Of a stretch of 64,000 nucleotides of DNA, positions 110-33,262 are shown piece by piece. Each line of letters starts with the position of its first letter. The stretch's first letter is position 1. Under the pieces are notes generated by a model that saw only the letters and a program-made list of their open reading frames with translations, ran no database searches and was not told the origin of the DNA. The translations under genes and the position numbers were made by a program. Origin of the DNA: a virus; the IMG/VR virus record IMGVR_UViG_3300008110_000034, positions 32,001-96,000 of that record; one strand, written 5' to 3'.

Positions 110-2779
110 TTGTACGTAGACGCTTATTTTGATAGAGATTCTGATGTCATCAAAATAGTAGAAAGAAACAACAAGGGAAAAAGAGAATTTAAAGATTTTC
201 CAGTTCGTTATACTTTTTACTATCCCGATCCTCGTGGTAAATTTACAAGCATTTACGGAGACCCGCTGTCTCGCGTAGTTTGTAGAAATTCAAAAGATTT
301 CCGTAAGGAAATGGCTATCCACAGTAATAAAAAACTTTATGAAGCAGACATCAATCCAGTATTTGTATGTCTTAGTGAGAACTACCTTAATCAAGATGCA
401 CCAAAACTAAACATTGCATTCTTTGACATCGAGGTAGACTTCGACCCTGAAAGAGGATACAGTACTCCGGAAGATGCTTTTATGCCTATTACGGCAATCA
501 CTGTATACTTAAAATGGCTTAATCAATTAATCACTTTAGCTATTCCACCTAAAACTTTAAAAATAGATCAAGCTAGAGATCTTATTAAAGACGTACCTGA
601 TACACATCTTTTTGAAAACGAAGGAGATATGTTAGAAACATTTCTTGATCTTATCGAAGATGCAGACATTTTAAGTGGATGGAACAGTGAAGGATATGAT
701 ATTCCTTATACTGTTAATCGTGTTACTCGTGTACTAAGTAAGGAAGATACTAAAAGATTCTGTCTGTTCGGACAGTATCCTAAAAAACGAGAATACGAAA
801 AATACGGTAAATCTGCCGTGACCTATGATCTGATAGGGAGAGTTCATTTAGACAGTCTTGAACTTTATAGAAAATACACCTATGAAGAAAGGCATTCTTA
901 TAGACTTGATGCTATTGGAGAAATGGAAGTCGGTGAAACCAAGACTGTTTATGAAGGTACCTTAGATCAATTATACAACAATGACTTTCATAAATTTATT
1001 GTCTATAACAGACAAGACGTAGCACTACTGAATAAACTAGACAATAAACTAAAATTTATAGATCTAGCCAACACACTTGCACATGAATGTACTGTGTTAC
1101 TGCAGACTACTATGGGTGCAGTAGCAGTTACAGAGCAGGCTATCATTAATGAAGCACATCAACGTGGCTTTCAGGTGCCTAATAGACCAAGGCGTGATGA
1201 AGATGAAGATACACAAGCAGCAGGTGCTTATGTTGCATATCCTAAAGAAGGCTTGCAAGACTGGGTTGGTTCATTAGATATTAACAGTCTTTATCCTAGT
1301 GCTATTAGAGCATTAAACATGGGTCCGGAAACTATTGTTGGACAACTAAGGCCTGTATATACAGAAACATACGTCCATGAACAAATGACTCTTAAAAAGA
1401 AATCATTTGCAGCAGCATGGGAAGGCATGTTTGGTAGTTTAGAATTTGAATCTGTAATTAAAAAAGACAAAGCGACGGCTATCACTATTGACTTTGAAAA
1501 CGGTGAAGAAGTTGTCATGAGTGGTGCAGAAATTTATAAATTAATCTACGACAGTAATCAACCGTGGATGATGTCTGCAAATGGAACTATTTTTACCTAT
1601 GAAAAAGAAGGTATTATTCCAGGTTTGTTAAAGCGTTGGTATGCAGAACGTAAAGAAATGCAGGCTAAACTTAAAGAGTGTATAAATGCTAGTAACAAAA
1701 TTGAAGAGGAATATTGGGATAAGCGACAGTTGGTTAAGAAGATTAATCTTAATAGTTTGTATGGTGCTATTCTTAATCCTGGCTGTAGGTTTTTCGATAA
1801 AAGAATCGGTCAATCAACGACGCTTACCGGACGGCAAATTGCCAAACACATGGCAAGTAAAGTCAACGAAATAATTACTGGAGAATACGATCATGTTGGA
1901 AAAGCTATTATCTACGGCGATACTGATAGCTGTTATTTTTCTGCTTATCGGTCGCTTAAAAAAGATATCGACTCGGGCGCGATCCCGTGGACCAAAGAAA
2001 CAGTAGTACAGCTTTACGATCAGATTGGCCAAGAGGTAAACAATACATTTGCCGGATTTATGGAAAATACATTTCATTGTCCTAAATCCAGAGGCGAAGT
2101 AATTAAAGCTGGTCGAGAAATTGTTGGTTCAAAAGCATTGTTCATTACTAAGAAACGTTATGCAGTATTGTATTACGATAAAGAAGGCAAGCGCACAGAC
2201 ACAGATGGAAAGCCTGGTAAGATTAAGGCCATGGGTCTGGATCTTAAACGTAGCGATACGCCAGAATTTATTCAGAACTTTCTGAGCGATGTACTTGAAA
2301 AAGTATTAACAGGTGCCAATGAAGAACAAGTGCTAGAGCATATTTCTAAATTTAGGACTGAATTTAAATCTCGTCCTGGTTGGGAAAAAGGTAGTCCAAA
2401 ACGTGCTAACAATATTACTGACTATGAAGCTAAAGAAAAGCGGCAGGGTAAAGCTAATATGCCTGGACATGTTCGTGCAAGCATAAATTGGAATACGCTA
2501 AAGCGTATGTACGATGACAAATATTCTATGCAGATTGTCGACGGAATGAAAGTCATTGTATGCAAATTAAAAGAAAATCCATTAGGGTTTACATCAGTAG
2601 CTTATCCTACAGATGAACTACGATTGCCTAAGTGGTTCCAGGAGCTGCCATTTGATCATTTAGAAATGGAAGCAACTATTATAGATAACAAGCTAGAAAA
2701 CTTAATCGGGGTCCTAAATTGGGATGTTCGATCAACTGAACAAAATAATACGTTTAACAATTTATTTGATTTTAGTTGA
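110..2779 (+). CDS. polB: Family B DNA polymerase (T4 gp43-like)
   Basis: Exonuclease motifs FFDIEVD, GWNSEGYDIPY and YNRQD; polymerase motifs SLDINSLYPS, KINLNSLYG and YGDTDS. TTG start with SD AGGAGA. C-terminal LFDF clamp-binding-like tail. Confidence 0.97.
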   Translation: MYVDAYFDRDSDVIKIVERNNKGKREFKDFPVRYTFYYPDPRGKFTSIYGDPLSRVVCRNSKDFRKEMAIHSNKKLYEADINPVFVCLSENYLNQDAPKLNIAFFDIEVDFDPERGYSTPEDAFMPITAITVYLKWLNQLITLAIPPKTLKIDQARDLIKDVPDTHLFENEGDMLETFLDLIEDADILSGWNSEGYDIPYTVNRVTRVLSKEDTKRFCLFGQYPKKREYEKYGKSAVTYDLIGRVHLDSLELYRKYTYEERHSYRLDAIGEMEVGETKTVYEGTLDQLYNNDFHKFIVYNRQDVALLNKLDNKLKFIDLANTLAHECTVLLQTTMGAVAVTEQAIINEAHQRGFQVPNRPRRDEDEDTQAAGAYVAYPKEGLQDWVGSLDINSLYPSAIRALNMGPETIVGQLRPVYTETYVHEQMTLKKKSFAAAWEGMFGSLEFESVIKKDKATAITIDFENGEEVVMSGAEIYKLIYDSNQPWMMSANGTIFTYEKEGIIPGLLKRWYAERKEMQAKLKECINASNKIEEEYWDKRQLVKKINLNSLYGAILNPGCRFFDKRIGQSTTLTGRQIAKHMASKVNEIITGEYDHVGKAIIYGDTDSCYFSAYRSLKKDIDSGAIPWTKETVVQLYDQIGQEVNNTFAGFMENTFHCPKSRGEVIKAGREIVGSKALFITKKRYAVLYYDKEGKRTDTDGKPGKIKAMGLDLKRSDTPEFIQNFLSDVLEKVLTGANEEQVLEHISKFRTEFKSRPGWEKGSPKRANNITDYEAKEKRQGKANMPGHVRASINWNTLKRMYDDKYSMQIVDGMKVIVCKLKENPLGFTSVAYPTDELRLPKWFQELPFDHLEMEATIIDNKLENLIGVLNWDVRSTEQNNTFNNLFDFS

Positions 2780-2784
2780 AAATT

Positions 2785-2791
2785 CTAAATA
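2785..2791 (+). promoter_or_regulatory. Putative T4-like late promoter (TAAATA)
   Basis: CTAAATA in the short gap upstream of the clamp gene. The same hexamer recurs in several other intergenic gaps. Confidence 0.4.
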
Positions 2792-2812
2792 CAATCAGAA
2801 AAGGAAAATAAA

Positions 2813-3544
2813 ATGAAAGATATTTTAACAGACATCGTAGCACATACACATAGCCTGTCTATTTTACCTTTGGTAAAAATTACAGGAACTGAGACTGAGA
2901 CTGCCATTGAAGCAATGGCTGAAGATAGATCAGTTATACTCTCTGCAAAATCACATGAGCCGGTTGAAGAGTTCCAAGGAGTTTTTGGAATGCCTAATCT
3001 TGATAAACTAAAACTTCACTTAAACTATGAGGAATACAAAGAAGATGCTAAAATCGAATTAACTAGAGCTGTGCGTAATGGCGAAGAAATTCCAACAGGC
3101 ATTCACTTTGAAAATACAACTGGTGACTTTAAAAACGATTATCGTTTTATGAACGCCGACATTATTAACGAAAAACTTAAAACAGTTAAATTCAAAGGGG
3201 CCAATTGGGATGTTAGTATTGAACCGAGCATTAGTTCAATTCAAAGACTAAAGTATCAAGCTCAAGCACATAGTGAAGAGTCGACTTTCCAAGTAAAAAC
3301 TGAAAACAACAATTTAGTGTTATTCTTTGGTGATGCAGGCACTCACGCAGGAAGCTTTGTATTCCAATCAGATATAGAAAGTAAACTAAAACAGACATGG
3401 GCATGGCCAGTGTCGCAAGTGTTAAGTATTTTAAATCTAAGCGGAGACAAAAAACTGATGATTAGCGATGCTGGAGCTATGATGATCAGTGTAGACAGTG
3501 GTCTGGTAAACTACAACTACATTCTCCCAGCACAGACAAAATAA
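2813..3544 (+). CDS. DNA sliding clamp (gp45/PCNA-like)
   Basis: 243 aa, directly after polB, rich in predicted beta-strand, ends YNYILPAQ like the C-terminal strand of PCNA/gp45. SD AAGGA. Confidence 0.7.
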   Translation: MKDILTDIVAHTHSLSILPLVKITGTETETAIEAMAEDRSVILSAKSHEPVEEFQGVFGMPNLDKLKLHLNYEEYKEDAKIELTRAVRNGEEIPTGIHFENTTGDFKNDYRFMNADIINEKLKTVKFKGANWDVSIEPSISSIQRLKYQAQAHSEESTFQVKTENNNLVLFFGDAGTHAGSFVFQSDIESKLKQTWAWPVSQVLSILNLSGDKKLMISDAGAMMISVDSGLVNYNYILPAQTK

Positions 3545-3553
3545 GGGATAACG

Positions 3554-3817
3554 ATGACATTCGTATTAAACTATGTTAAAGATCATATTCCTCAAATGGA
3601 AATGATTGGAGTAGTAATGCGTATTATAAGTTTTACATTAGTATCATGGTTAGGGCCAGCAAGTCCTTTTATGTTTGTTTGGATTTTTAACACTATAGAT
3701 GCTGTACTTTTAACGTATTGTGCAACTATAAAGAAAGACAAAGCATATACACTTTTAAATGGATTTTGGATCATAGTTGGTCTAATTGGAATTGCTAGGG
3801 CAGGAGGATTGTTATGA
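3554..3817 (+). CDS. Small membrane protein (about 3 TM helices)
   Basis: 87 aa with hydrophobic segments such as LLNGFWIIVGLIGIA; coupled to its neighbours. Confidence 0.7.
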   Translation: MTFVLNYVKDHIPQMEMIGVVMRIISFTLVSWLGPASPFMFVWIFNTIDAVLLTYCATIKKDKAYTLLNGFWIIVGLIGIARAGGLL

Positions 3818-4272
3818 GTGGAATGAGAGAAAAAGATCAAGCAGATTTTGATTTAGAGACATTTGTGGACTTATTTGATACAGCGATGAGTTCAGATAAT
3901 CCAGCAGTACAACGTGCATTAAAGAATCTGATTCTTATTAGTGCTATGGTTAATGCGCAAAATGATCCTAGTGGTTTGACTAAAGGACCACTACGTAGAG
4001 TAGTCGAAGATATGAGACATCTAAGTAGAAGAATAGAGCAACTGGAAAGTGCAGGCGCATATAGATCTACATATACTACAAAAACTACTACAGGTACTGG
4101 AACTCCATACACGCCTAATCAGACTCAGTGGCCTAATGTATTGCCTGGAACTATTCCCCCTGGAACTATAATTGGTGGGCAAAGTATCAGTGGTGGTCCT
4201 AGTAATCTAGCAGCAACTAGTCAAATAGATGTTAAAGTAGGCAATTTATTAGATAAGTTAGAATTAAAATGA
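3814..4272 (+). CDS. Hypothetical protein with T/G/P-rich low-complexity C-half
   Basis: ATGA overlaps with both neighbours; 152 aa. Confidence 0.7.
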   Translation: MSGMREKDQADFDLETFVDLFDTAMSSDNPAVQRALKNLILISAMVNAQNDPSGLTKGPLRRVVEDMRHLSRRIEQLESAGAYRSTYTTKTTTGTGTPYTPNQTQWPNVLPGTIPPGTIIGGQSISGGPSNLAATSQIDVKVGNLLDKLELK

Positions 4273-5801
4273 ATAAAAATTTAACTGCATCTCAAAACGA
4301 TTATGCATATTTTTTGCCGGCAACTAGCGGGTTTTACGCAACCTTTATTGGTAAGCAACGGTACGGAAATTACGTTGACCCTGCACGTATTCCTAAAAGT
4401 TTTGTCAATGGTATAGAAAGTTTAAATTATCTTGAACCAGAAAAAGGATTATTTTATTATGATCACTGTCTGTATTCAGCAGGTCATGCTAACTTAGATC
4501 TTAACAAACAAGACGAAAGTGAAGACATGTTTCGTAATCGTGACCGCAGTACTTCATGGGTACTAGGTGACTCGGGCGGTTTCCAAATTGGTAAAGGTGT
4601 CTGGGAAGCAGATTGGAAAGATCCTAACTGTCCTAAAGCACAAAAGAAACGCAGTCAAGTGTTAAATTGGATGGATACACTTATGGACTACGGTATGTGC
4701 CTTGATATTCCAGCATGGGTCGCTCGTAGTCCGGAAGGACAAAAGGCTACCGGTATTACTACATATGCAGAAGCAGTGCAAGGAACGTATATCAATAATG
4801 ATTACTTCGTAAACAACAGAAATGGTAATTGTAAATTCTTAAATGTTCTGCAAGGCGAAAATCACGCAGATGCCGAAGATTGGTATCAGCGTATGAAAAA
4901 GTATTGTGACCCTAAGCAGTACAGTGACCGTGCATTTAACGGTTGGGCCATGGGCGGTCAAAACATGTGTGATATACATCTAGTTCTAAAAAGAATCAAC
5001 TCTTTAAGATTCGACGGCTTGCTAGAAAAAGATCAACAAGACTGGATGCACTTTTTAGGAACCAGTAAACTAGAATGGGCTACCTTACTAACTGATTTAC
5101 AACGTGCTATAAGAAAACACCATAACGAAAACTTTACTATATCATTTGACTGTGCAAGTCCATTCCTTGCAACCGCAAACGGTCAAATTTATGTTCAAAC
5201 AGAAATCGAAGATAGAACTAAATGGGTATATAGAATGGTTCCGTCAGTTGACGACAAAAAGTATGCCAACGATACTAGACTATTCAAAGACGTAGTGATC
5301 CAAGATGCAGTTTTTGAAAATTTTGAATCTAGTCCAATTATTGATCAATGTAGTATAAAAGATGTATGTATATATGCACCTGGTGATTTAAACAAAATTG
5401 GTAAAGAAGGCAGTACTAGTTGGGATTCATTTAGCTATGCCATTCAAATGGGGCATAATGTTTGGGCGCATATTAATGCTGTACAAGAAGCCAATCGGCA
5501 ATATGATTTGGGGAAAATTCCGTCAATGTTAGTTGACGAACGCTTTGATAGAGTTTATTATAAGGACATTGTTAACGAAATATTTTCTACAAGCGACAAA
5601 GGAAAGTCAGATAAAATCATTGAAGATTATTCCAAATATTGGATGAGTATTATTGGCACTAGAGGAGCAACAGGAAAAAGAACTGTAAACGCTCATACCT
5701 ATGCAGATAAACTATTCGATATTGACGCCAACGTTGCTAATATTAAAATTCCTAAACTAACCGAACCTGTTCAAACAACCTTTGATACATTATTTGAATG
5801 A
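4269..5801 (+). CDS. dpdA: TGT-fold base-exchange enzyme, probably a DpdA-type 7-deazaguanine DNA transglycosylase
   Basis: TGT catalytic motifs in order: GDSGGFQ, MCLDIP, NVLQG, GWAMGG, HFLGTS, SFDCASP, GHN. Lacks the CxCxxC Zn motif of tRNA TGTs. folE, queE and a queD-like gene lie nearby. Confidence 0.75.
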   Translation: MNKNLTASQNDYAYFLPATSGFYATFIGKQRYGNYVDPARIPKSFVNGIESLNYLEPEKGLFYYDHCLYSAGHANLDLNKQDESEDMFRNRDRSTSWVLGDSGGFQIGKGVWEADWKDPNCPKAQKKRSQVLNWMDTLMDYGMCLDIPAWVARSPEGQKATGITTYAEAVQGTYINNDYFVNNRNGNCKFLNVLQGENHADAEDWYQRMKKYCDPKQYSDRAFNGWAMGGQNMCDIHLVLKRINSLRFDGLLEKDQQDWMHFLGTSKLEWATLLTDLQRAIRKHHNENFTISFDCASPFLATANGQIYVQTEIEDRTKWVYRMVPSVDDKKYANDTRLFKDVVIQDAVFENFESSPIIDQCSIKDVCIYAPGDLNKIGKEGSTSWDSFSYAIQMGHNVWAHINAVQEANRQYDLGKIPSMLVDERFDRVYYKDIVNEIFSTSDKGKSDKIIEDYSKYWMSIIGTRGATGKRTVNAHTYADKLFDIDANVANIKIPKLTEPVQTTFDTLFE

Positions 5802-6554: not shown

Positions 6555-7086
6555 TTATAAAGACGGTATTAAAAACGATGTAAATTTTTTCATCGGAAAT
6601 GAAGTTGAACACACTCCTGCATTCGGAATGCGTACAATGTTTGTTACTGGAGTACACAACATAGACGATATAGAAAATATCGTTAATGAAGAAAATTCAA
6701 AACTAGATAGATCATATCACATCAAGCATATTTTCTTTGGGGCTAATCATAGTTTCAATCCTCAAACATACGAGGAACATAAATTATGGGAAGAAATGAT
6801 ATTTTATTTCCTCAGAAAAGATTATCTGTGTTCTCTTGATATTCCTATAAATCAAGTAGAGGAATTCCATGAATCAGGTTACTGTGAATATGATAATTTT
6901 ATTCCTCAAATTCGTGTGCCGATTCCATATATAAAACTATGGAACTATAACACAATGGTTAAAATTGATGATAAAGATTTTAAAGCAACTAATCCTGGCG
7001 TATGGTCACACAGTCTACATACGCTAATGAATCGTAACAAATTTACAGACTGGTCGCAATACAATAATGACGAGATCGTTAAATGA
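6544..7086 (+). CDS. Hypothetical protein coupled to the QueD-like gene
   Basis: 180 aa; ATGA overlap with 7083. Confidence 0.75.
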   Translation: MQRNYKDGIKNDVNFFIGNEVEHTPAFGMRTMFVTGVHNIDDIENIVNEENSKLDRSYHIKHIFFGANHSFNPQTYEEHKLWEEMIFYFLRKDYLCSLDIPINQVEEFHESGYCEYDNFIPQIRVPIPYIKLWNYNTMVKIDDKDFKATNPGVWSHSLHTLMNRNKFTDWSQYNNDEIVK

Positions 7087-7478
7087 TTATTAAACAAGAT
7101 GTACGTCCAAATAAAATGATTTGGGTTACCTTTCGTAAGGAAGGGATCCATTGTTACCCGGCAGCAGCCACAGACACTAACCTAGCAACAGGAGATGAAT
7201 ATGATGTATCGTTCCTTGCTCATCCTCACCGTCATATTTTTCACTTTCGTGTGTGGATCAGCGTTACTCATAACGACAGAGATATCGAGTTTATCCAATT
7301 TAAAAGATGGCTTGAAAAATTGTATAATAGCGAACAAGCTGTATTGTCGCTAGATCATAAAAGTTGCGAAATGATGTCAGATGAATTGTATGACATGATT
7401 TCCAATAAGTATCCAGGCAGAGAAGTTTGGATTGAAGTCTCCGAAGATGGAGAAAATGGTAGTTTTATCAAATATTAA
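7083..7478 (+). CDS. QueD-like T-fold protein, DpdL-like variant (candidate CDG decarboxylase)
   Basis: LAHPHRHIF metal-binding motif instead of the QueD CxxxHGH; also SCEM and VSEDGENG; 131 aa. Confidence 0.65.
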   Translation: MIIKQDVRPNKMIWVTFRKEGIHCYPAAATDTNLATGDEYDVSFLAHPHRHIFHFRVWISVTHNDRDIEFIQFKRWLEKLYNSEQAVLSLDHKSCEMMSDELYDMISNKYPGREVWIEVSEDGENGSFIKY

Positions 7479-7500: not shown

Positions 7501-7740
7501 ATGTCTCAAGAACGTCTTAAAAAATATTTTGTTATGAAACCTGAAGTAACAAAAATTTTCGATGATCTAGAAGCTTATCATAATTTTTGCAGATTCGAAT
7601 TGCTGCCTTTTAATCCGGCAGATCTATATAACAAATCAAGCACTATCTGGAATCAATATCTGCAATCAACTAGACCTCGTAGATGGAAAAACGACAGACC
7701 TGGATCATATAACGGTCATAAAAAACACTATACAAGATAA
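7501..7740 (+). CDS. Hypothetical protein
   Basis: SD AAGGA; 79 aa; TAATG overlap with the next gene. Confidence 0.7.
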   Translation: MSQERLKKYFVMKPEVTKIFDDLEAYHNFCRFELLPFNPADLYNKSSTIWNQYLQSTRPRRWKNDRPGSYNGHKKHYTR

Positions 7741-8837
7741 TGACAGTCTATATAGTAGATCTTGAGGCAGTAGAAACAAGGTATACTGCCCAATGGAAAT
7801 CTCATTTACCTAGTATTTTAAAAAAGAAAGGTTATGATGTTCAAGTTATATCTGGCCCTGAGGATATTCCTAGTGCCACTACTCCTGGCGCCTTCCTTAA
7901 TTTTGGCGGCACTAATGTCTATAAGTCTCGTCAAACTGAAGAGATTAGTAGACTGTTTACTACCGGTAAGATAAAATCATTTGATCACTTTGTGTTTACT
8001 GATGCCTGGCATCCCGGTATCATTAATTTAAAGTATATGAGCAGTCTGCTTAGTGTTCCAATTAAGATACACGCACTATGGCATGCCGGCAGTTATGACC
8101 CTCAGGACTTCTTAGGTCGTCTAATTGGTAACGAACCTTGGGTAAGACATGCCGAGAAGTCATTTTTTTATGCTATTGATTATAATTACTTTGCTACAAA
8201 CTTTCATATTGATATGTTTGTACGCAATTTATTGAACAACGGGCTGACGGAAAATCCATGGCTAGAAGATGATTTGCAGGATGCGTTAAAGGGTGATTGG
8301 CCTAATGTTGTACGCACAGGATGGCCTATGGAATATTTTCATGACATTTTCACACAATATCAAGGAATGCCTAAGCGTGATTTAATTCTCTTTCCTCACA
8401 GACTGGCTCCCGAGAAGCAGGTCAATATTTTTAGAGATTTAAAAGAACTGTTACCACAATATGAATTTGTAATTTGTCAAGAACAAGAATTAACAAAAAA
8501 CGAATATCATAACTTATTAGGCGAAGCTAAGATTGTGTTTAGTGCTAACCTACAAGAAACCCTAGGCATCAGCTGTTATGAAGGATGCGTACTCAATGCT
8601 ATTCCTATGGTTCCAGACAGACTTTCATATACAGAAATGTATTTTGACACATTCAAATATCCTAGCAACTGGACAGATACTTGGGACAATTATTTGGACC
8701 ATAGGCAAATGTTGGTAAAAACAATAATAGATCATATGACTTTTTACGAAACTAGACTGCCAATGTTGCATAAACAAACGGAGGCATTACGTGAGCAATA
8801 CTTCGCAGGAACCAATTTATACAATAACCTTAGATGA
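7740..8837 (+). CDS. GT-B fold glycosyltransferase
   Basis: C-terminal GT-B donor-binding pattern FPHRLAPEKQ...SANLQETLGISCYEG...PMVPDRLSYTEM; N-domain FTDAW/WHAGSYD. Confidence 0.8.
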   Translation: MTVYIVDLEAVETRYTAQWKSHLPSILKKKGYDVQVISGPEDIPSATTPGAFLNFGGTNVYKSRQTEEISRLFTTGKIKSFDHFVFTDAWHPGIINLKYMSSLLSVPIKIHALWHAGSYDPQDFLGRLIGNEPWVRHAEKSFFYAIDYNYFATNFHIDMFVRNLLNNGLTENPWLEDDLQDALKGDWPNVVRTGWPMEYFHDIFTQYQGMPKRDLILFPHRLAPEKQVNIFRDLKELLPQYEFVICQEQELTKNEYHNLLGEAKIVFSANLQETLGISCYEGCVLNAIPMVPDRLSYTEMYFDTFKYPSNWTDTWDNYLDHRQMLVKTIIDHMTFYETRLPMLHKQTEALREQYFAGTNLYNNLR

Positions 8838-12051: not shown

Positions 12052-12387
12052 ATGGTATATAACAAAATGTATGAAAGCAACGACGAGACTGGCTTAGATG
12101 CTATGGCCGGAGATGGTGGCTACCAAGAATCAACATTATCTGCTGTACTACGTGCTAAAATGAAAAGAGAAGGAAAGCGTTTCTGGGCAGGAGACAATAT
12201 CAGCGACTATCTTCATGACAGCGACAAAGAGCACTTAATTAATGAAGCTACAGAAGCATTTGAAGGTGTACTAGACACACTGCTGATTGATCGCGAAAAC
12301 GATCCTAACAGTAAAGGCACAGCCCGCAGGCTTGCTAAAATGTATTTCAACGAAATAATGGCAGGAAGATATGAGAAGGAATGTTAG
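12052..12387 (+). CDS. folE: GTP cyclohydrolase I, N-terminal fragment of a split gene
   Basis: DPNSKGTARRLAKMYFNEIMAGRY matches the FolE N-terminal helices, then a premature TAG. Confidence 0.75.
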   Translation: MVYNKMYESNDETGLDAMAGDGGYQESTLSAVLRAKMKREGKRFWAGDNISDYLHDSDKEHLINEATEAFEGVLDTLLIDRENDPNSKGTARRLAKMYFNEIMAGRYEKEC

Positions 12388-12767
12388 TAGTACGTAGCGA
12401 ATTAAGAAGTATGTGTAGTCATCATCATCAACCAGTTAATGGTGTAGCATATATTGGTATCATTGCTGCTAATAAACTTATTGGCTTATCTAAGTACACT
12501 CGAATCGCTCAATGGTGTGCTAGACGCGGTACTCTACAAGAAGAACTGGCCAACGATATTGCAAGAGAAATTAGTCGAGCTACTGACGCTAAAGATGTAG
12601 GTGTGTACATTCAGGCCACACATGGCTGCTGTGAGAATCGAGGTATTATGGCACATAGTAGTCTTACACAGACTACAGTATTAAAAGGTGCGTTCAAAGA
12701 TGATCAAGGCACTAAAAAAGAATTCTTTGATAACATCAAACTACAACAAGATTTTGCTCCAAGATAA
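12381..12767 (+). CDS. folE: GTP cyclohydrolase I, C-terminal catalytic fragment of a split gene
   Basis: SMCSHHHQP (Zn Cys/His), GLSKYTR, TLQEEL, HGCCENRG. Different frame from the N-fragment. Confidence 0.85.
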   Translation: MLVVRSELRSMCSHHHQPVNGVAYIGIIAANKLIGLSKYTRIAQWCARRGTLQEELANDIAREISRATDAKDVGVYIQATHGCCENRGIMAHSSLTQTTVLKGAFKDDQGTKKEFFDNIKLQQDFAPR

Positions 12768-13773: not shown

Positions 13774-14123
13774 CACCGCAGATACCTGCAGAAGGAATTT
13801 ATAAAACGGGCGAATGGGGGGACTCAGTGTCTTACCGTATTGCCTGTAATTGTCACGATGCAAATCATTCTCACGATCTTTGGGTAGAAGCCAGCGACAT
13901 AGGTATAGATATTACAATCTATACCACAGTTAAATCTAAATGGTGGTCTATTAATCGACTAAAACAAATTTGGATATTATTAACTAAGGGCTATATAGAG
14001 ACAGAGTCGTCGATTTCTCTTACAACACAACAAGCTCTTAATTATTCTGAAGTTTTAAAATCTTCTATAGAATATGTAGACAAATTAAGAGAAAGTTATA
14101 TTAGAAAGAAAAAAGATGAGTAA
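13770..14123 (+). CDS. Hypothetical protein
   Basis: 117 aa; ATGA overlap. Confidence 0.65.
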   Translation: MTPQIPAEGIYKTGEWGDSVSYRIACNCHDANHSHDLWVEASDIGIDITIYTTVKSKWWSINRLKQIWILLTKGYIETESSISLTTQQALNYSEVLKSSIEYVDKLRESYIRKKKDE

Positions 14124-14973
14124 AATAAAAATAGCAGAGCTTTTTTATAGCATACAAGGCGAAGGACGCTTTATGGGTGTTCCTTCTGTTTTCTTACGTA
14201 CATACGGTTGTAATTTTAAATGCGCCGGATTTGGTATGCCACGCGGTGAGATTAGTATTGAAGCAGATGATATTGCATATACACATGCCAATATTGAATC
14301 TTTTCATAAGTACGAAGAACTGCCGTTAGTTACTACAGGCTGTGATAGTTATGCAAGTTGGCATCCAGCATTTAAAGATCTAAGCCCTATGCTAACTGTA
14401 GATGCTATAGTTGATAGAATAATGGAATTACTTCCTTATAATAAATGGCGCAGTGAGCATCTTGTTATTACAGGCGGTGAACCTTTGCTAGGTTGGCAAC
14501 GTGCTTATCCAGATTTGTTAAGTCACGATAAAATGAAAAAATTAAAAGATATAACATTTGAAACAAATGGTACTCAAGAAATATCTAAAGATTTTAGAAA
14601 GTACTTAGAAAAGTGGACACACAAACAAGGGTATCACAATCTTACGTTTAGCGTGAGTCCAAAACTAGGTGTAAGCGGAGAGAAGAAAGAAGACGCTATA
14701 CGTCCAGATATCGTTAGAGAATATGAAGAACTAGGACACACTTATCTAAAATTCGTAGTCGCCACTGAAGAGGATCTTAAAGATGCAGAACAGGCAGTTC
14801 AAGAATATCGCGATAACGGTTTCGAAGGTCACATTTATCTTATGCCTGTCGGGGGTGTTGAACGGGTGTACAATCTTAATAATAGAACAGTGGCACAGAT
14901 GGCAATGCAAAAAGGATGGCGGTACAGTGATCGACTTCAAGTGCCGTTATTTAAAAACGAATGGGGAACCTAA
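14116..14973 (+). CDS. queE: 7-carboxy-7-deazaguanine synthase (radical SAM)
   Basis: ELFYSIQGEG...VFLRTYGCNFKC...GCDS, VITGGEPLL, FETNGT, SVSPKL and RLQVPLF. Confidence 0.9.
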   Translation: MSKIKIAELFYSIQGEGRFMGVPSVFLRTYGCNFKCAGFGMPRGEISIEADDIAYTHANIESFHKYEELPLVTTGCDSYASWHPAFKDLSPMLTVDAIVDRIMELLPYNKWRSEHLVITGGEPLLGWQRAYPDLLSHDKMKKLKDITFETNGTQEISKDFRKYLEKWTHKQGYHNLTFSVSPKLGVSGEKKEDAIRPDIVREYEELGHTYLKFVVATEEDLKDAEQAVQEYRDNGFEGHIYLMPVGGVERVYNLNNRTVAQMAMQKGWRYSDRLQVPLFKNEWGT

Positions 14974-15422
14974 TGAAAAACTTTATTAAAAAAATAACGG
15001 GCATCGAACGATTAGAAAAAGAAAGAGCTGAATCATTAGCTCGTTTAGCTGAAGCTAAAGCTAGCGAAGAAGCAGCTAAAAAGGCAGAAGAAGAAGCTCG
15101 TCAACAAGAAGAATTGGCTAAAATGACGCCAAAAGAACGAGCTACTGCTAACCAAGAACCTTATATTGCTGTTTTAGATACTAAGGTCAATCCAGAAAAT
15201 CCTAGAAATGGCTTTTTTGAACTTGACTGGAACGAATACTTTATTGTACAATTAAGACAAGCGGGTTATGGTTTAGATGGTGATCCAGACGAGCTTGTTG
15301 TTGATTTATGGTTCCGTGACCTTGCTCGTAATATCTTAGCCGAAGAAGGTCAAGATATTACTCGAGGAGCCGGATATATTAACGTTGTTCCAATTTCAAA
15401 AGGCAAATTAGAAGTTTCATGA
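14973..15422 (+). CDS. Hypothetical protein with N-terminal coiled coil
   Basis: TAATG overlap with queE; E/K/A-rich helix. Confidence 0.7.
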   Translation: MKNFIKKITGIERLEKERAESLARLAEAKASEEAAKKAEEEARQQEELAKMTPKERATANQEPYIAVLDTKVNPENPRNGFFELDWNEYFIVQLRQAGYGLDGDPDELVVDLWFRDLARNILAEEGQDITRGAGYINVVPISKGKLEVS

Positions 15423-16423
15423 CATATATTCTAGTAGATACTGCTAATACATTTTTCCGTGCTAGGCACGTAGTTCGTGGAGATGCTGATACTAAACTTG
15501 GTATGGCTCTCCATATTACTTTTAACAGTATTAAAAAGGCCTGGCAAGATTTTGAGGGCAAGCATGTTGTATTCTGTCTTGAAGGTCGATCATGGCGTAA
15601 AGACGTTTATACGCCCTATAAGGCTAATAGAGCCGAAACTCGAGCTGCTATGACTCCAAAAGAAGCAGAAGAAGATAAACTCTTTTGGGAAACCTTTGAT
15701 AAGTTTAAGGAATTCATTACTGAGAAATCTAATTGTACTGTGTTACAACACCCACAGTTAGAAGCAGATGATCTTATTGCAGGATGGATACAAAGTCATC
15801 CTCACGACAGTCATGTTATTATTAGCACTGACAGCGACTTTGCACAACTAATTTCTCCAACTGTTCGGCAATACAACGGCGTAGCAAATGTAACTACTAC
15901 GCACAAAGGATATTTTGACGATCGAGGAAAAGAAGTAATTGATAAAAAAACTAAGCAGCCGAAGCCGGCACCTAATCCACAATGGCTGCTATTCGAAAAA
16001 TGTATGCGAGGTGATACAAGCGATAATGTGTTTTCAGCATACCCAGGAGTTCGCGTTAAAGGAACAAAAAATAAAGTAGGACTAACAGAAGCGTTTGAAG
16101 ATAGAAACTCAAAAGGATTCGCGTGGAACAATCTCATGTTACAACGTTGGATGGATCATAACGGTGTTGAACATAGAGTGCTCGACGACTATAATAGAAA
16201 TGTACAGCTCTGTGATCTAACTGCACAACCTGATCATATTAGATCTTTGATTAAAGAAACTATTCATGCACAGACTAGTTCTCCTAAGAAAATTGACCAA
16301 GTTGGAATTCGAATGTTAAAATTTTGTAATTTATTTGACTTACAAAAAATTTCAGACAACATTCAACAATATGCAGAACCATTCGCTGCCAAATATACTA
16401 GTAAAGAAGTTGAACTAATTTAA
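15419..16423 (+). CDS. rnh: T4 RNase H-like 5'-3' exonuclease / flap endonuclease
   Basis: ILVDTANTFFR, EADDLIA, ISTDSDFAQL and GDTSDNVFSAYPGV. Confidence 0.9.
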   Translation: MTYILVDTANTFFRARHVVRGDADTKLGMALHITFNSIKKAWQDFEGKHVVFCLEGRSWRKDVYTPYKANRAETRAAMTPKEAEEDKLFWETFDKFKEFITEKSNCTVLQHPQLEADDLIAGWIQSHPHDSHVIISTDSDFAQLISPTVRQYNGVANVTTTHKGYFDDRGKEVIDKKTKQPKPAPNPQWLLFEKCMRGDTSDNVFSAYPGVRVKGTKNKVGLTEAFEDRNSKGFAWNNLMLQRWMDHNGVEHRVLDDYNRNVQLCDLTAQPDHIRSLIKETIHAQTSSPKKIDQVGIRMLKFCNLFDLQKISDNIQQYAEPFAAKYTSKEVELI

Positions 16424-30825: not shown

Positions 30826-32013
30826 TTAATTGGCAAATTGGTTACTGAACATATCGTTTTTTACACCACATGTTTTGGCACAGATTTGTAATTTCCCGTC
30901 AGCACAACTAGATTTGGTCCAACTATTAGGAACAATATCTTGAAAATATAATCCATTTACGATTGATTCTAAACTGTGATTTTTGGCATTTAAATTTTCT
31001 TTTCCTACTTTATTAATTGCTTGCCAAATTTGGCCGCCTTCTGGTAACCAATACCAAACATACATTTGTCCGGCGGTCCAACAACAAGGTTGAACAATAC
31101 CTTCAGCTGAAACATAAAGACTTTTTTCTTCTGCTACTTTACATTTTATTGGAACTTCGTCCCAATACTTCTCCATTGGTTTTTTCTTAGAGGGATCAAT
31201 ATGAAATTTTTGTTTACTTTGCACAATGAATGCTTCTTCTGCTTTACTTGGAACAAAAGAAATAGTATCTTCTAGTTTTTTATCAATTTTACTTAATTCT
31301 GCTAATGCTGTATTTTTATACTTGTCATCAGTAGGAGGTTTTAAAAGAGTAGTTGCTTGTCCTTTACGATTGGCCGCTTGATGAGTGTCTTTTGTTGCGC
31401 CCGAGGCATTGCTGAAAAATCTTGCTGATTTTTTAAATTGAAACTTTTCAAACCCCATTTTCCCACTTAATGCTCTGGCCTCGTCGACCTGATGTTCGTT
31501 GTGTTCAAATACAATATAATCCCATCTTGCCCTGCCGCCAGCATTTATAAAAGCCTGAGCATTTTCCATAATTTTAGACCATATAGTATTTTGTCTGTAC
31601 AGATGATTAGTATCTTCTAATCCGTCTAAACTAAACACTACATTAGAATTTTTTCCCATAACTTGAGCAAGACGTGCCCACCAATCCGGTTTCTTCGCAC
31701 TGCCGTTGGTGTGCATACTTAAATTCATTTTAGGATTAGATTGTCTAAAATATTCAAATATTTCTAAAGTATCTCTAGCAGCAATAGGATCTCCATAATT
31801 GCCACACATATATAGTCTGTCTAATTGCTGTATAAACTCAACTGTAAATATTCTTTTAACATCATCAAGATGTAATTCTGTGTTTGGTAACTGAGGATTG
31901 TCTTCGCCACCGTTAATGTTTCTAGCACACATTGGGCAGGCTGCGTTACAGCTATCTGTAACTTCTAAGTGTACAGTTCTAATGTCGTTATAGTGGTATA
32001 TCATCTTGTTCAA
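30826..32013 (-). CDS. Radical SAM protein with C-terminal SPASM/twitch domain
   Basis: CNAACPMC, CGNYGDP and HTNG; C-terminal CX13GX4CC...CAKTC. Confidence 0.9.
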   Translation of the reverse strand: MNKMIYHYNDIRTVHLEVTDSCNAACPMCARNINGGEDNPQLPNTELHLDDVKRIFTVEFIQQLDRLYMCGNYGDPIAARDTLEIFEYFRQSNPKMNLSMHTNGSAKKPDWWARLAQVMGKNSNVVFSLDGLEDTNHLYRQNTIWSKIMENAQAFINAGGRARWDYIVFEHNEHQVDEARALSGKMGFEKFQFKKSARFFSNASGATKDTHQAANRKGQATTLLKPPTDDKYKNTALAELSKIDKKLEDTISFVPSKAEEAFIVQSKQKFHIDPSKKKPMEKYWDEVPIKCKVAEEKSLYVSAEGIVQPCCWTAGQMYVWYWLPEGGQIWQAINKVGKENLNAKNHSLESIVNGLYFQDIVPNSWTKSSCADGKLQICAKTCGVKNDMFSNQFAN

Positions 32014-33262
32014 ATAGATAACTAAATTGTTTTAAATAATCTTTATTTACTGCTTCTTGAAAATACAGAAATTCTTCTTTTAACTTATTATTTGCTCTTG
32101 TACTAAAATCGTGATTGTCTAATAAATCAAAAACATTTTGAAAGTCTGATTTATAATCTAAATTACAATCGTTAATAACATTAATTAAAGATTGTTTTGA
32201 CTTCATAATATATTTTTTTGGAAGAACATTAATAGACATTGATCGTGGCCAAGTGAGTATAATTGGTTTAATTACACATCTTTTATCTCCAAGTGTTTTT
32301 TTCCACCAATAAATTAAATTATCTAAATATCTTACATTTAACCCGCTGACTACAGGTACTAAAGTAAGTTGGAAATTATCGTCTACATGTTTGACCGCTA
32401 AGTTAACATTTTTTTCAATATTATTCCAATCTGAACTCGTTCTTAAATATTCATTCAATTCGCCATACGCATCAATACTTAAATTTAATTCTACACTTTT
32501 AAAACTTTTAAGAAGATTTAATTGGTATTCGCTAAACTGAGACGTATTTGTATTACACCAGAATACAATGTTTGATGAGTAACCTTGCTCAACAAGAAAG
32601 GTTATAAAGTTCCAAAGAGGTTTAATAATAAAAGGTTCGCCGCCTGTAACATACAGATGCTCTAACTTATTTGCAATGTCTTTAAGCCCTTCCCAAAAAG
32701 TTTCACTTTTATCTAATTGTTCTTCTCCTGGATTATTAGACCACCATCGTTGATTTAACAACATTGTCTTTTTTTCTTCTCCCATTTTTTGCCCTATAGA
32801 AGTAATTAAAGAAGACCAATCTGTAGAACACATAATGCAAGCATAGTTACAAGTTTTAGCTACTTGCAAATTATAATAGCTGGGTACTAACTTTGTATCA
32901 AACTTTTCCCAATTAGAAAAATCTTCAGGTAATGAAGTATCATAATTTTGTTGAAAGACATTCCACTCTTCTAATCGTTTAGAAACTAATCCTTGTTTTT
33001 CTTTGATCCAACAAGATTCACATTCTGAAAGTTTTTCTCCATTTATCATCCGTTTTCTAGATTCGTTGTAGTATGAATTATTAAAAATTTCTATAATCTT
33101 TGTAGACTTACCGTCAACTTTTTCTATGTCAGGATTATACTTTGCTTCGCAACAAAATTTTATTTGTCCTTTAGTTTCTGTACTAAAATGATTGAATAAC
33201 AAAGGACACATTGTTGGATGTGTACCTGGAGAAAATCTATTTAAAAATTCTTCTCGATTCAT
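31988..33262 (-). CDS. Radical SAM protein with N-terminal SPASM/twitch-like domain
   Basis: CNYACIMC, VTGGEP and NTN; N-terminal CX12GX4CC...CESC. Confidence 0.9.
   Translation of the reverse strand: MNREEFLNRFSPGTHPTMCPLLFNHFSTETKGQIKFCCEAKYNPDIEKVDGKSTKIIEIFNNSYYNESRKRMINGEKLSECESCWIKEKQGLVSKRLEEWNVFQQNYDTSLPEDFSNWEKFDTKLVPSYYNLQVAKTCNYACIMCSTDWSSLITSIGQKMGEEKKTMLLNQRWWSNNPGEEQLDKSETFWEGLKDIANKLEHLYVTGGEPFIIKPLWNFITFLVEQGYSSNIVFWCNTNTSQFSEYQLNLLKSFKSVELNLSIDAYGELNEYLRTSSDWNNIEKNVNLAVKHVDDNFQLTLVPVVSGLNVRYLDNLIYWWKKTLGDKRCVIKPIILTWPRSMSINVLPKKYIMKSKQSLINVINDCNLDYKSDFQNVFDLLDNHDFSTRANNKLKEEFLYFQEAVNKDYLKQFSYLFEQDDIPL

Follow-up and report, generated by a model that had tools for sequence, protein, structure and literature searches.

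In bacteriophage T4, the sliding clamp gp45 is bound by the C-terminal tail of the DNA polymerase gp43 (EKASLDFLFG) and also, in a crystal structure, by an internal loop of T4 ligase (GLDFLFD) (PMC6212786). The tails of gp43, gp33, and gp55 are interchangeable, and they are functional also when they are internal (PMC2988020). The insertion of 7-deazaguanine into phage DNA by DpdA enzymes has been viewed as "post-replicative," and the paper that presents this view mentions the clamp 0 times (PMC10516641). Our literature search found no paper that linked DpdA or 7-deazaguanine to a sliding clamp, and the initial annotation of the DNA described here, which was made from the sequence alone, likewise knew of no such description. 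That DNA, from a giant uncultured phage, is a 64,000-nucleotide stretch (referred to as the window) that spans positions 32001-96000 of a 180,861-bp IMG/VR virus contig (IMGVR_UViG_3300008110_000034; CheckV completeness, 51%). Near the start of the window, genes for a family B DNA polymerase and a predicted sliding clamp are followed by a gene for a 510-amino acid (aa) enzyme of the tRNA-guanine transglycosylase (TGT)/DpdA superfamily, and the enzyme ends in the same type of peptide as the polymerase. From the combined analyses, we infer that the shared peptide is likely to be a clamp-docking motif and that it would serve to couple the insertion of 7-deazaguanine to replication.

The arrangement resembled that of the T4 and RB69 gp45 clients in that a short hydrophobic-acidic peptide was joined to a flexible segment whose linker was variable in sequence, and in that one peptide type, either C-terminal or internal, was common to the polymerase and other clients. 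The DpdA tails of three T4-like phages (ACP17, Moby, and X1) had the form [ST]LDxLF or SLExLF, which is nearly the T4 form. The differences were that a base-exchange enzyme is not among the known gp45 clients, that the consensus in the lineage of the window was [ST]xFxxLF[DE] rather than SLDFLF and its binding is putative, and that the clamp encoded in the window had no sequence-level match to T4 gp45. For T4, both this type of peptide and the clamp toolbelt are textbook knowledge; the novelty would lie in the class of client to which a known docking device is attached. In eukaryotes, DNMT1 and UNG2 are DNA-base enzymes that are tethered to PCNA by a PIP box, Qxx[LIM]xx[FY][FY]. The likeness is that a base-acting enzyme is held on a clamp by a short peptide and acts on newly replicated DNA, but DNMT1 and UNG2 are unrelated cellular proteins that have another consensus and carry out methylation or base excision instead of base exchange. 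The T4 alpha-glucosyltransferase was an earlier proposal of a clamp-riding hypermodifying enzyme that acts during replication; according to a 2025 preprint (10.64898/2025.12.06.692756), gp45 binding, which was proposed in 2004, was not reproduced in vitro or in vivo. The passages of the preprint that were consulted mention no polymerase-like tail in the glucosyltransferase, in contrast to the explicit conserved motif described here.

The first 6 kb of the window contained five genes in the open reading frame (ORF) list, all on the plus strand. The features of the three genes that are central to this work were as follows.

110..2779, plus strand: T4/RB69-type family B DNA polymerase, 889 aa (Pfam DNA_pol_B and exonuclease domain, PHROG 262)
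2741..2776, plus strand: polymerase C-terminal peptide QNNTFNNLFDFS, putative clamp-binding tail (translation of 2741-2779, including the stop)
2813..3544, plus strand: sliding clamp of the PCNA/gp45 type, 243 aa (predicted fold)
4269..5801, plus strand: TGT-superfamily enzyme, 510 aa, interpreted as a DpdA-like DNA guanine transglycosylase (predicted fold, hhalign)
5664..5798, plus strand: disordered C-terminal tail of the transglycosylase, residues 466-510 (pLDDT)
5697..5720, plus strand: internal motif copy TYADKLFD, transglycosylase residues 477-484 (translation)
5775..5798, plus strand: terminal motif copy TTFDTLFE, transglycosylase residues 503-510 (translation)

Translation confirmed both tails as the initial annotation had written them. 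The polymerase ended in QNNTFNNLFDFS, and the 510-aa protein ended in EPVQTTFDTLFE, of which the last residues were VQTTFDTLFE. Folds were predicted with AlphaFold2 and compared by Foldseek and VIA-align, and the VIA-align scan covered 48,161 chains. The model of the 510-aa protein had a mean pLDDT of 90.9, while residues 466-476 and 486-510 had a pLDDT of <50, with a short helix at residues 505-509; these low values bore out the proposed flexible linker in front of the transglycosylase peptide. When the C termini of a set of 193 non-overlapping genes from all 180,861 bp of the contig were examined, F..LF[DE] was present within the last 10 residues of two of them, the polymerase and the transglycosylase. 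Therefore, the earlier claim that no other ORF in the window ended in this way held for the whole contig.

The motif was also conserved among close orthologs of the 510-aa protein (n = 120; 75-85% identical). Specifically, [FY]..[LFM]F[DE] was found within the last 60 residues in 95.8% of the orthologs, compared to 0.4% of shuffled tails and 0% of random segments of the protein bodies. Hence, the tail was kept in orthologs, a point on which the initial annotation had made its proposal depend, while the sequence and length of the linker varied. In one ortholog subgroup, the motif was the extreme C terminus and a variable linker preceded it. In a second subgroup, the motif stood right after a conserved GKKTVNAS and preceded an acidic extension of approximately 30 residues (a typical internal copy was ...GKKTVNAST-MFANLFDEV...). 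The window protein held both copies, the near-intact internal TYADKLFD and the terminal TTFDTLFE, which were 18 residues apart, and TYADKLFD sat at the position of the sole motif copy in most orthologs. The two copies might bind two subunits of a clamp trimer. Judging from these alignments, the motif behaves as a short linear motif that is kept either at the C terminus or internally. The acidic extension in many orthologs (P0008, P0011, P0014, PA5oct L001:8998-10620, and others) contained a second conserved block, approximately EEFTEDE..KLDQLE; the window protein had no acidic extension after the motif.

Of the 1,500 ORFs of at least 100 aa in 80 related loci, 72 ended in the motif. These 72 were made up of 53 polymerases, 14 transglycosylase-sized ORFs, 4 ORFs with the polymerase's own tail, which are probably the C-terminal pieces of split polymerase genes, and 1 member of a third family.

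The initial annotation had also raised the question of whether the two tails co-vary across related genomes. The order polymerase, clamp, transglycosylase was kept in the Pseudomonas phage PA5oct (with a small ORF between the clamp and transglycosylase genes), in Vibrio phage 2.275.O, and in the related loci L117, L121, and L122; in Phosso, the order clamp then transglycosylase was kept. The tails of the polymerase and the transglycosylase were as follows.

Window: polymerase TFNNLFDFS, transglycosylase TFDTLFE
PA5oct: polymerase HFDSLFGW, transglycosylase SFNSLFD
Vibrio phage 2.275.O: polymerase NNTDLFDW, transglycosylase NNNDLFGW
L036: polymerase AFANFFEFE, transglycosylase SYNNFFE
L117: polymerase TLDDLFDF, transglycosylase VNNLFDFS
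L121: polymerase AMKLFNY, transglycosylase AKSLFEF
L122: polymerase NKMFTF, transglycosylase MKLFDFGG

A second set of pairs came from Acidovorax phage ACP17, which is truly T4-like and whose gp45, gp44/62, and gp43 are annotated, and from other T4-like phages with DpdA genes; this set, from outside the family of the window protein, provided the strongest test. The 424-aa DpdA of ACP17 adjoined DpdL and QueE and had no BLAST link to the window protein. In an hhalign comparison, it matched the window family with a probability of 96.5% (E value, 8e-10), and its relatives were annotated as queuine tRNA-ribosyltransferase in several T4-like phages. The tails of the polymerase and DpdA in this set were as follows.

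ACP17: polymerase VPSLDDLFE, DpdA VTTLDELFE
Moby: polymerase SSLEDLFGW, DpdA NSLDDLFG
X1: polymerase SSLESLFG, DpdA QSLEELFG
BUCT-ZZ01: polymerase STLDDFFS, DpdA ASLDSFFD

The pairing recurred in a second, independent and very distant DpdA family of T4-like phages. A permutation test with 13 deep lineages and 100,000 permutations compared same-genome and shuffled tail pairings. The same-genome pairing scored 270 versus 184 +/- 18 for the shuffled pairings, and 0 of the 100,000 permutations reached 270 (p<1e-5). When the two clades were tested separately, the p values were 0.027 and 0.0014. Thus, in pairs from about 13 deep lineages, the tails of the polymerase and the transglycosylase did co-vary across distant lineages.

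The identity of the polymerase was clear from a PHROG 262 match at an E value of 8e-202, together with Pfam DNA_pol_B and an exonuclease domain. Its thumb domain aligned with RB69 gp43 to residue 851/903, which left a C-terminal tail of similar length, and QNNTFNNLFDFS sat at the position equivalent to that of the T4 gp43 tail. The form NTFNxLF[DE]F of this tail was kept in about 70 related loci. In PA5oct (L001:2608-7834) and L121 (4955-9154), the polymerase gene was interrupted by a homing endonuclease and/or an intein, and the clamp-type tail was on the C-terminal piece of the split gene.

The 243-aa protein encoded between the polymerase and transglycosylase genes had no Pfam match and no PDB sequence match, and its model (pLDDT, 87.5) matched sliding clamps. 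In Foldseek, yeast PCNA was the top match (E value, 1.7e-11; TM, 0.67). With VIA-align, PCNA had a Z score of 17.6 and T4 gp45 (6drt) had a Z score of 16.8, with an rmsd of 3.1 over 212 of 230 residues, and each of the best 39 matches was either a clamp or a clamp-type processivity factor. The gp45 Pfam domains PF02916 and PF09116 were found nowhere on the contig, and no second clamp was found there. A gene for a gp44/RFC-like clamp loader was located on the same contig (G000:10763-11656), with 33% identity to the clamp loader of ACP17 (E value, 7.7e-39). According to the predicted fold, the 2813-3544 protein is a two-domain sliding clamp. The earlier proposal of a clamp gene between the other two genes was thus borne out at the level of the fold, and the gp44-like loader on the contig added to it. 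The replisome of the phage would be T4-style, with a family B polymerase, a clamp with the PCNA/gp45 fold, and a gp44-like clamp loader. The homologs of the clamp in PA5oct (L001:7915-8661) and Phosso (L003:8184-8906) were annotated as "structural protein" or "virion structural protein"; these labels are probably wrong, because the predicted fold of the family is that of a sliding clamp.

The 510-aa protein had no Pfam (TGT, PF01702) or PHROG match and no PDB sequence match, whether a single sequence or a profile was used. In Foldseek, the top 50 matches of its model were all TGT proteins, and Zymomonas mobilis TGT came first (E value, 8.6e-8; probability, 1.0). The top five VIA-align matches were ArcTGT (Z score, 19.2), QTRT2 (17.4), bacterial TGT (17.4), DpdA 7ui4 (16.0), and Cap10 (14.9), and unrelated TIM barrels had Z scores of 11.8 or less. 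The identity to the DNA preQ0 insertase DpdA 7ui4 was 16%. An 84-member family profile matched Escherichia coli TGT in hhalign with a probability of 88.5% (E value, 2.7e-6). In this alignment, D101 (GDSGGFQ), D146 (LDIP), and D294 (SFDC) were placed with D89, D143, and D264 of E. coli TGT, its catalytic and base-binding residues, and all three residues were invariant across the 84 family members. Taken together, the predicted fold and the aligned catalytic Asp residues identify the 4269-5801 protein as an enzyme of the TGT/DpdA superfamily with its catalytic Asp residues in place, as the initial annotation had proposed. The TGT-type TIM barrel, the DSGG motif, and the conserved Asp residues are shared with known phage and bacterial DpdA enzymes (bDpdA and DpdA1-4; PMC10516641; 7ui4). 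A further likeness is that FolE, QueE, DpdL, or QueC genes are found alongside the enzyme in phages with DNA that resists restriction at G-containing sites. The window enzyme differs from known DpdA in that it had no Pfam, PHROG, or PDB sequence match and in that a clamp-type tail was present.

The remaining two genes in the first 6 kb and the genes downstream that bear on the substrate of the enzyme were as follows.

3554..3817, plus strand: small hydrophobic ORF, 87 aa, no assigned function (no family match)
3814..4272, plus strand: ORF, 152 aa, no assigned function (no family match)
7083..7478, plus strand: DpdL homolog, a proposed 7-carboxy-7-deazaguanine decarboxylase (tblastn)
7740..8837, plus strand: conserved 365-aa protein that accompanies the transglycosylase (similarity to an ACP17 gene)
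12052..12767, plus strand: GTP cyclohydrolase I (FolE), two overlapping ORFs (PF01227)
14116..14973, plus strand: QueE-like radical SAM enzyme (weak Radical_SAM match, synteny)

Small ORFs were also found at the position of the 87-aa ORF in PA5oct and Vibrio phage 2.275.O. The DpdL homolog matched sequences in ACP17 (54.5% identity; E value, 2e-33) and in phage phiST (34%; E value, 3e-8), and these matches adjoined the 7-deazaguanine synthesis genes of those phages. DpdL was defined as a decarboxylase that was proposed to yield 7-deazaguanine (PMC10516641). In the case of FolE, PF01227 matched the ORF at 12381-12767 (E value, 2e-33), and the ORF that covers the N-terminal part (12052-12387) had no match; the overlap of the two ORFs may reflect a genuine split of the gene, a frameshift, or an error in sequencing. 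The QueE-like gene was syntenic with the annotated QueE genes of PA5oct and ACP17, and its own Radical_SAM match was weak. A canonical QueD (PF01242) was not found on the contig, which is 51% complete. Synthesis genes were also present in relatives, namely, QueE in PA5oct; QueF, QueC, and FolE in Vibrio phage 2.275.O; and QueC and FolE in L122. PA5oct, a Pseudomonas jumbo phage, was the nearest cultured relative, and its homologous transglycosylase was 34% identical. The DNA of PA5oct, whose genes include QueE and one for a PTPS-like protein, was reported to be resistant to restriction enzymes with G-containing sites (PMC12191111). The earlier suggestion that DNA, not tRNA, is the substrate fits the nearby FolE, QueE-like, and DpdL genes and the restriction resistance of PA5oct (PMC12191111). 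The 510-aa enzyme is best read as one that replaces guanine in DNA with a 7-deazaguanine base, and the inserted base would probably be 7-deazaguanine itself, made by FolE, QueD, QueE, and DpdL.

The 365-aa protein had no Pfam match. It was 33% identical (E value, 7e-65) to the product of a gene that adjoins DpdA in ACP17, and the same N terminus was found in PA5oct. Hence, a protein of about 350 aa accompanied the transglycosylase and DpdL in the window (7740-8837), ACP17 (L084:10969-11997), and PA5oct (L001:10620-11681), and this companion may be involved in further modification of the inserted base.

The catalytic TIM barrel of the predicted structure leads into a disordered tail of some 45 residues that bears the polymerase-type peptide [ST]xFxxLF[DE]. 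In the mechanism that we propose, the transglycosylase would dock on the phage clamp via the peptide or peptides in this tail, as T4 ligase, gp33, and gp55 do on gp45. A trimeric clamp might carry the polymerase and the transglycosylase together; alternatively, a clamp left behind the fork might carry the transglycosylase along the nascent duplex. In both cases, phage DNA that had just been replicated would be the main site of guanine exchange.

Several observations weighed against this proposal. The clamp and transglycosylase assignments were drawn from predicted folds and one profile alignment, because Pfam and PDB sequence searches recognized neither protein. The covariation test used related lineages, and its statistics ignored phylogeny. 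A strict regular expression for the motif matched only 8% of distant family representatives, and looser forms were enriched 2- to 14-fold over shuffles; therefore, the motif was degenerate or absent in part of the family. The Phosso transglycosylase ended in just ...VEGLF and its polymerase ended in TTFNDLFTF, the DpdA tail of phage pf16 was degenerate, and the DpdA proteins of the vibriophages KVP40 (L086:2489-3868) and phi-Grn1 (L115:1192-2568) had no motif although the polymerases had it (the KVP40-type vibriophage polymerase ended in TLESFFG). The DNA of phi-Grn1 carries a trace modification, 816 dPreQ1 per million nucleotides (PMC10516641), and the tail-less DpdA of this phage fits, as a correlation, a link between the tail and the efficiency of modification. 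In the case of phiST, replacement of G is complete, the candidate DpdA3 (gp042; 259 aa versus 510 aa for the window enzyme) had no tail, and the polymerase was of the DnaE type. Therefore, a clamp tether would not be required for complete modification. The phiST gp042 protein was taken as DpdA3 from gene order alone, and it had no BLASTP match to the 510-aa protein. The distribution of the motif-less family members, in contrast, favors the proposal: they were found on small phage contigs or, in bacteria, in an island that also contained QueC, QueD, and QueE, and no polymerase or clamp was seen near them in the flanks that were read.

Campylobacter phage CP220 has 100% ADG replacement, and its polymerase ended in ...ETLEEW. 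A DpdA3 was not found in CP220 with the window-family profile, phiST gp042, or the ACP17 DpdA, and neither the phiST nor the CP220 records gave a match to the window-family HMM. A tblastn search with phiST gp042 returned only Cellulophaga and Chryseobacterium phages and weak Bacillus matches, and no Campylobacter phage was among them.

We also considered whether the shared peptide has a different partner or a different role. The peptide might dock both proteins on another hub of the replisome; the host beta clamp and the clamp loader are candidates, as are the helicase loader and the single-strand-binding protein. Many hub-binding tails share the hydrophobic-acidic character of the peptide, and its resemblance to the beta-clamp-binding peptides of bacteria (e.g., QLxLF) also counts against the proposed docking on the phage clamp. 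The same can be said of the motif-bearing member P0291, since neither a phage polymerase nor a clamp was seen on its 12-kb contig. However, the polymerase tail was positioned where the clamp-binding tail of T4/RB69 gp43 sits, the shared tails of true T4-like phages had the form SLDxLF, like the gp45-binding LDFLF of T4, and the clamp gene stayed adjacent to the transglycosylase gene across very distant phages. In light of these points, another hub seems unlikely. It appears less likely still that the peptide has a role outside replication, for example, as a signal for degradation or turnover, in autoinhibition, or in targeting the proteins to the capsid or a compartment. The conserved acidic extension after the motif in many orthologs would suit such a role, and so would the structural labels on the clamp homologs of PA5oct and Phosso. 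The PA5oct label came from detection by mass spectrometry, but the RNase H of PA5oct bears the same mass spectrometry note, so the label is no proof of a role in the virion, and the predicted fold of the 243-aa protein is plainly that of a clamp. Moreover, a tag would leave the covariation with the polymerase tail, a known clamp ligand, unexplained.

The resemblance between the tails might also be functionless, a product of chance or of compositional bias at C termini, or the enzyme might act on tRNA and its tail be irrelevant. The motif is short, with four to five defined positions, and tRNA-modifying TGT enzymes have the same fold. The findings presented above make this explanation very improbable: just 2/193 genes ended in this way, 96% of orthologs versus 0.4% of shuffled tails had the motif, the pairing recurred in a second DpdA family, the permutation test gave p<1e-5, and the DNA of PA5oct behaves as G-modified DNA (PMC12191111). 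Docking of the two tails on the phage clamp is the reading that we favor.

Other candidate clients were sought among the remaining genes, and a looser scan of all 193 C termini of the contig yielded no convincing further client. A radical SAM/SPASM protein (31988-33262, minus strand) ended in FSYLFEQDDIPL, which resembled the motif followed by an SSB-like DDIPL, and it had 11 paralog matches in one genome. It was rejected as a client since the tail was not common to its paralogs in related phages, and the resemblance of FSYLFEQDDIPL is probably due to chance for the same reason. An RNase H/FEN protein (15419-16423) was also rejected; its FCNLFD, which lay 30 residues before the C terminus, corresponded to FCNRWA in PA5oct and was thus not a conserved motif. 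In some relatives, a family of proteins of about 190 aa, encoded 1-3 kb downstream of the transglycosylase, ended in [ST]x[FY]xxLF[DE] (e.g., ...HFDNLFEPA and ...TYVSLFEETV) and had a weak MutH-like Pfam match (E value, 0.018). Members of this family were located at the following positions.

L012:13788-14369
L010:10512-11087
L019:8931-9506
L055:11735-12331
L037:14251-14853
L023:9371-9952

No homolog of this family was found on the contig of the window. On the basis of its tails, the family may be a third clamp client, perhaps a nuclease. In Vibrio phage 2.275.O, the gene that immediately follows that of the transglycosylase (L002:10723-11835) encoded a protein with a motif-like N terminus, MFNELFDF.

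A broader reading of these results is possible, and we put it forward tentatively. Clamp tethering might be general in phage DNA hypermodification, with at least two distant DpdA subfamilies having acquired or kept the polymerase's peptide, so that base exchange becomes coupled to the fork. The tail might then help to set near-complete versus trace replacement, and the toolbelt might extend to the protein of about 190 aa.

The 7-deazaguanine modifications of DNA shield phages from restriction and are now relevant to phage therapy and to defenses that sense modified DNA. A clamp-docking tail would provide a concrete mechanism by which, during a single infection cycle, many or all of the guanines could be replaced in a genome that measures hundreds of kilobases. 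If the proposal is correct, the enzyme would travel along new DNA on the same ring as the polymerase; the viral clamp toolbelt would thereby gain a client of a new class, and the "post-replicative" picture of DpdA would be refined. A polymerase-like tail could also serve as a sequence marker for predicting phages that heavily modify their DNA. The same arrangement is present in PA5oct, a Pseudomonas phage that is available in culture, so the mechanism would be within experimental reach.

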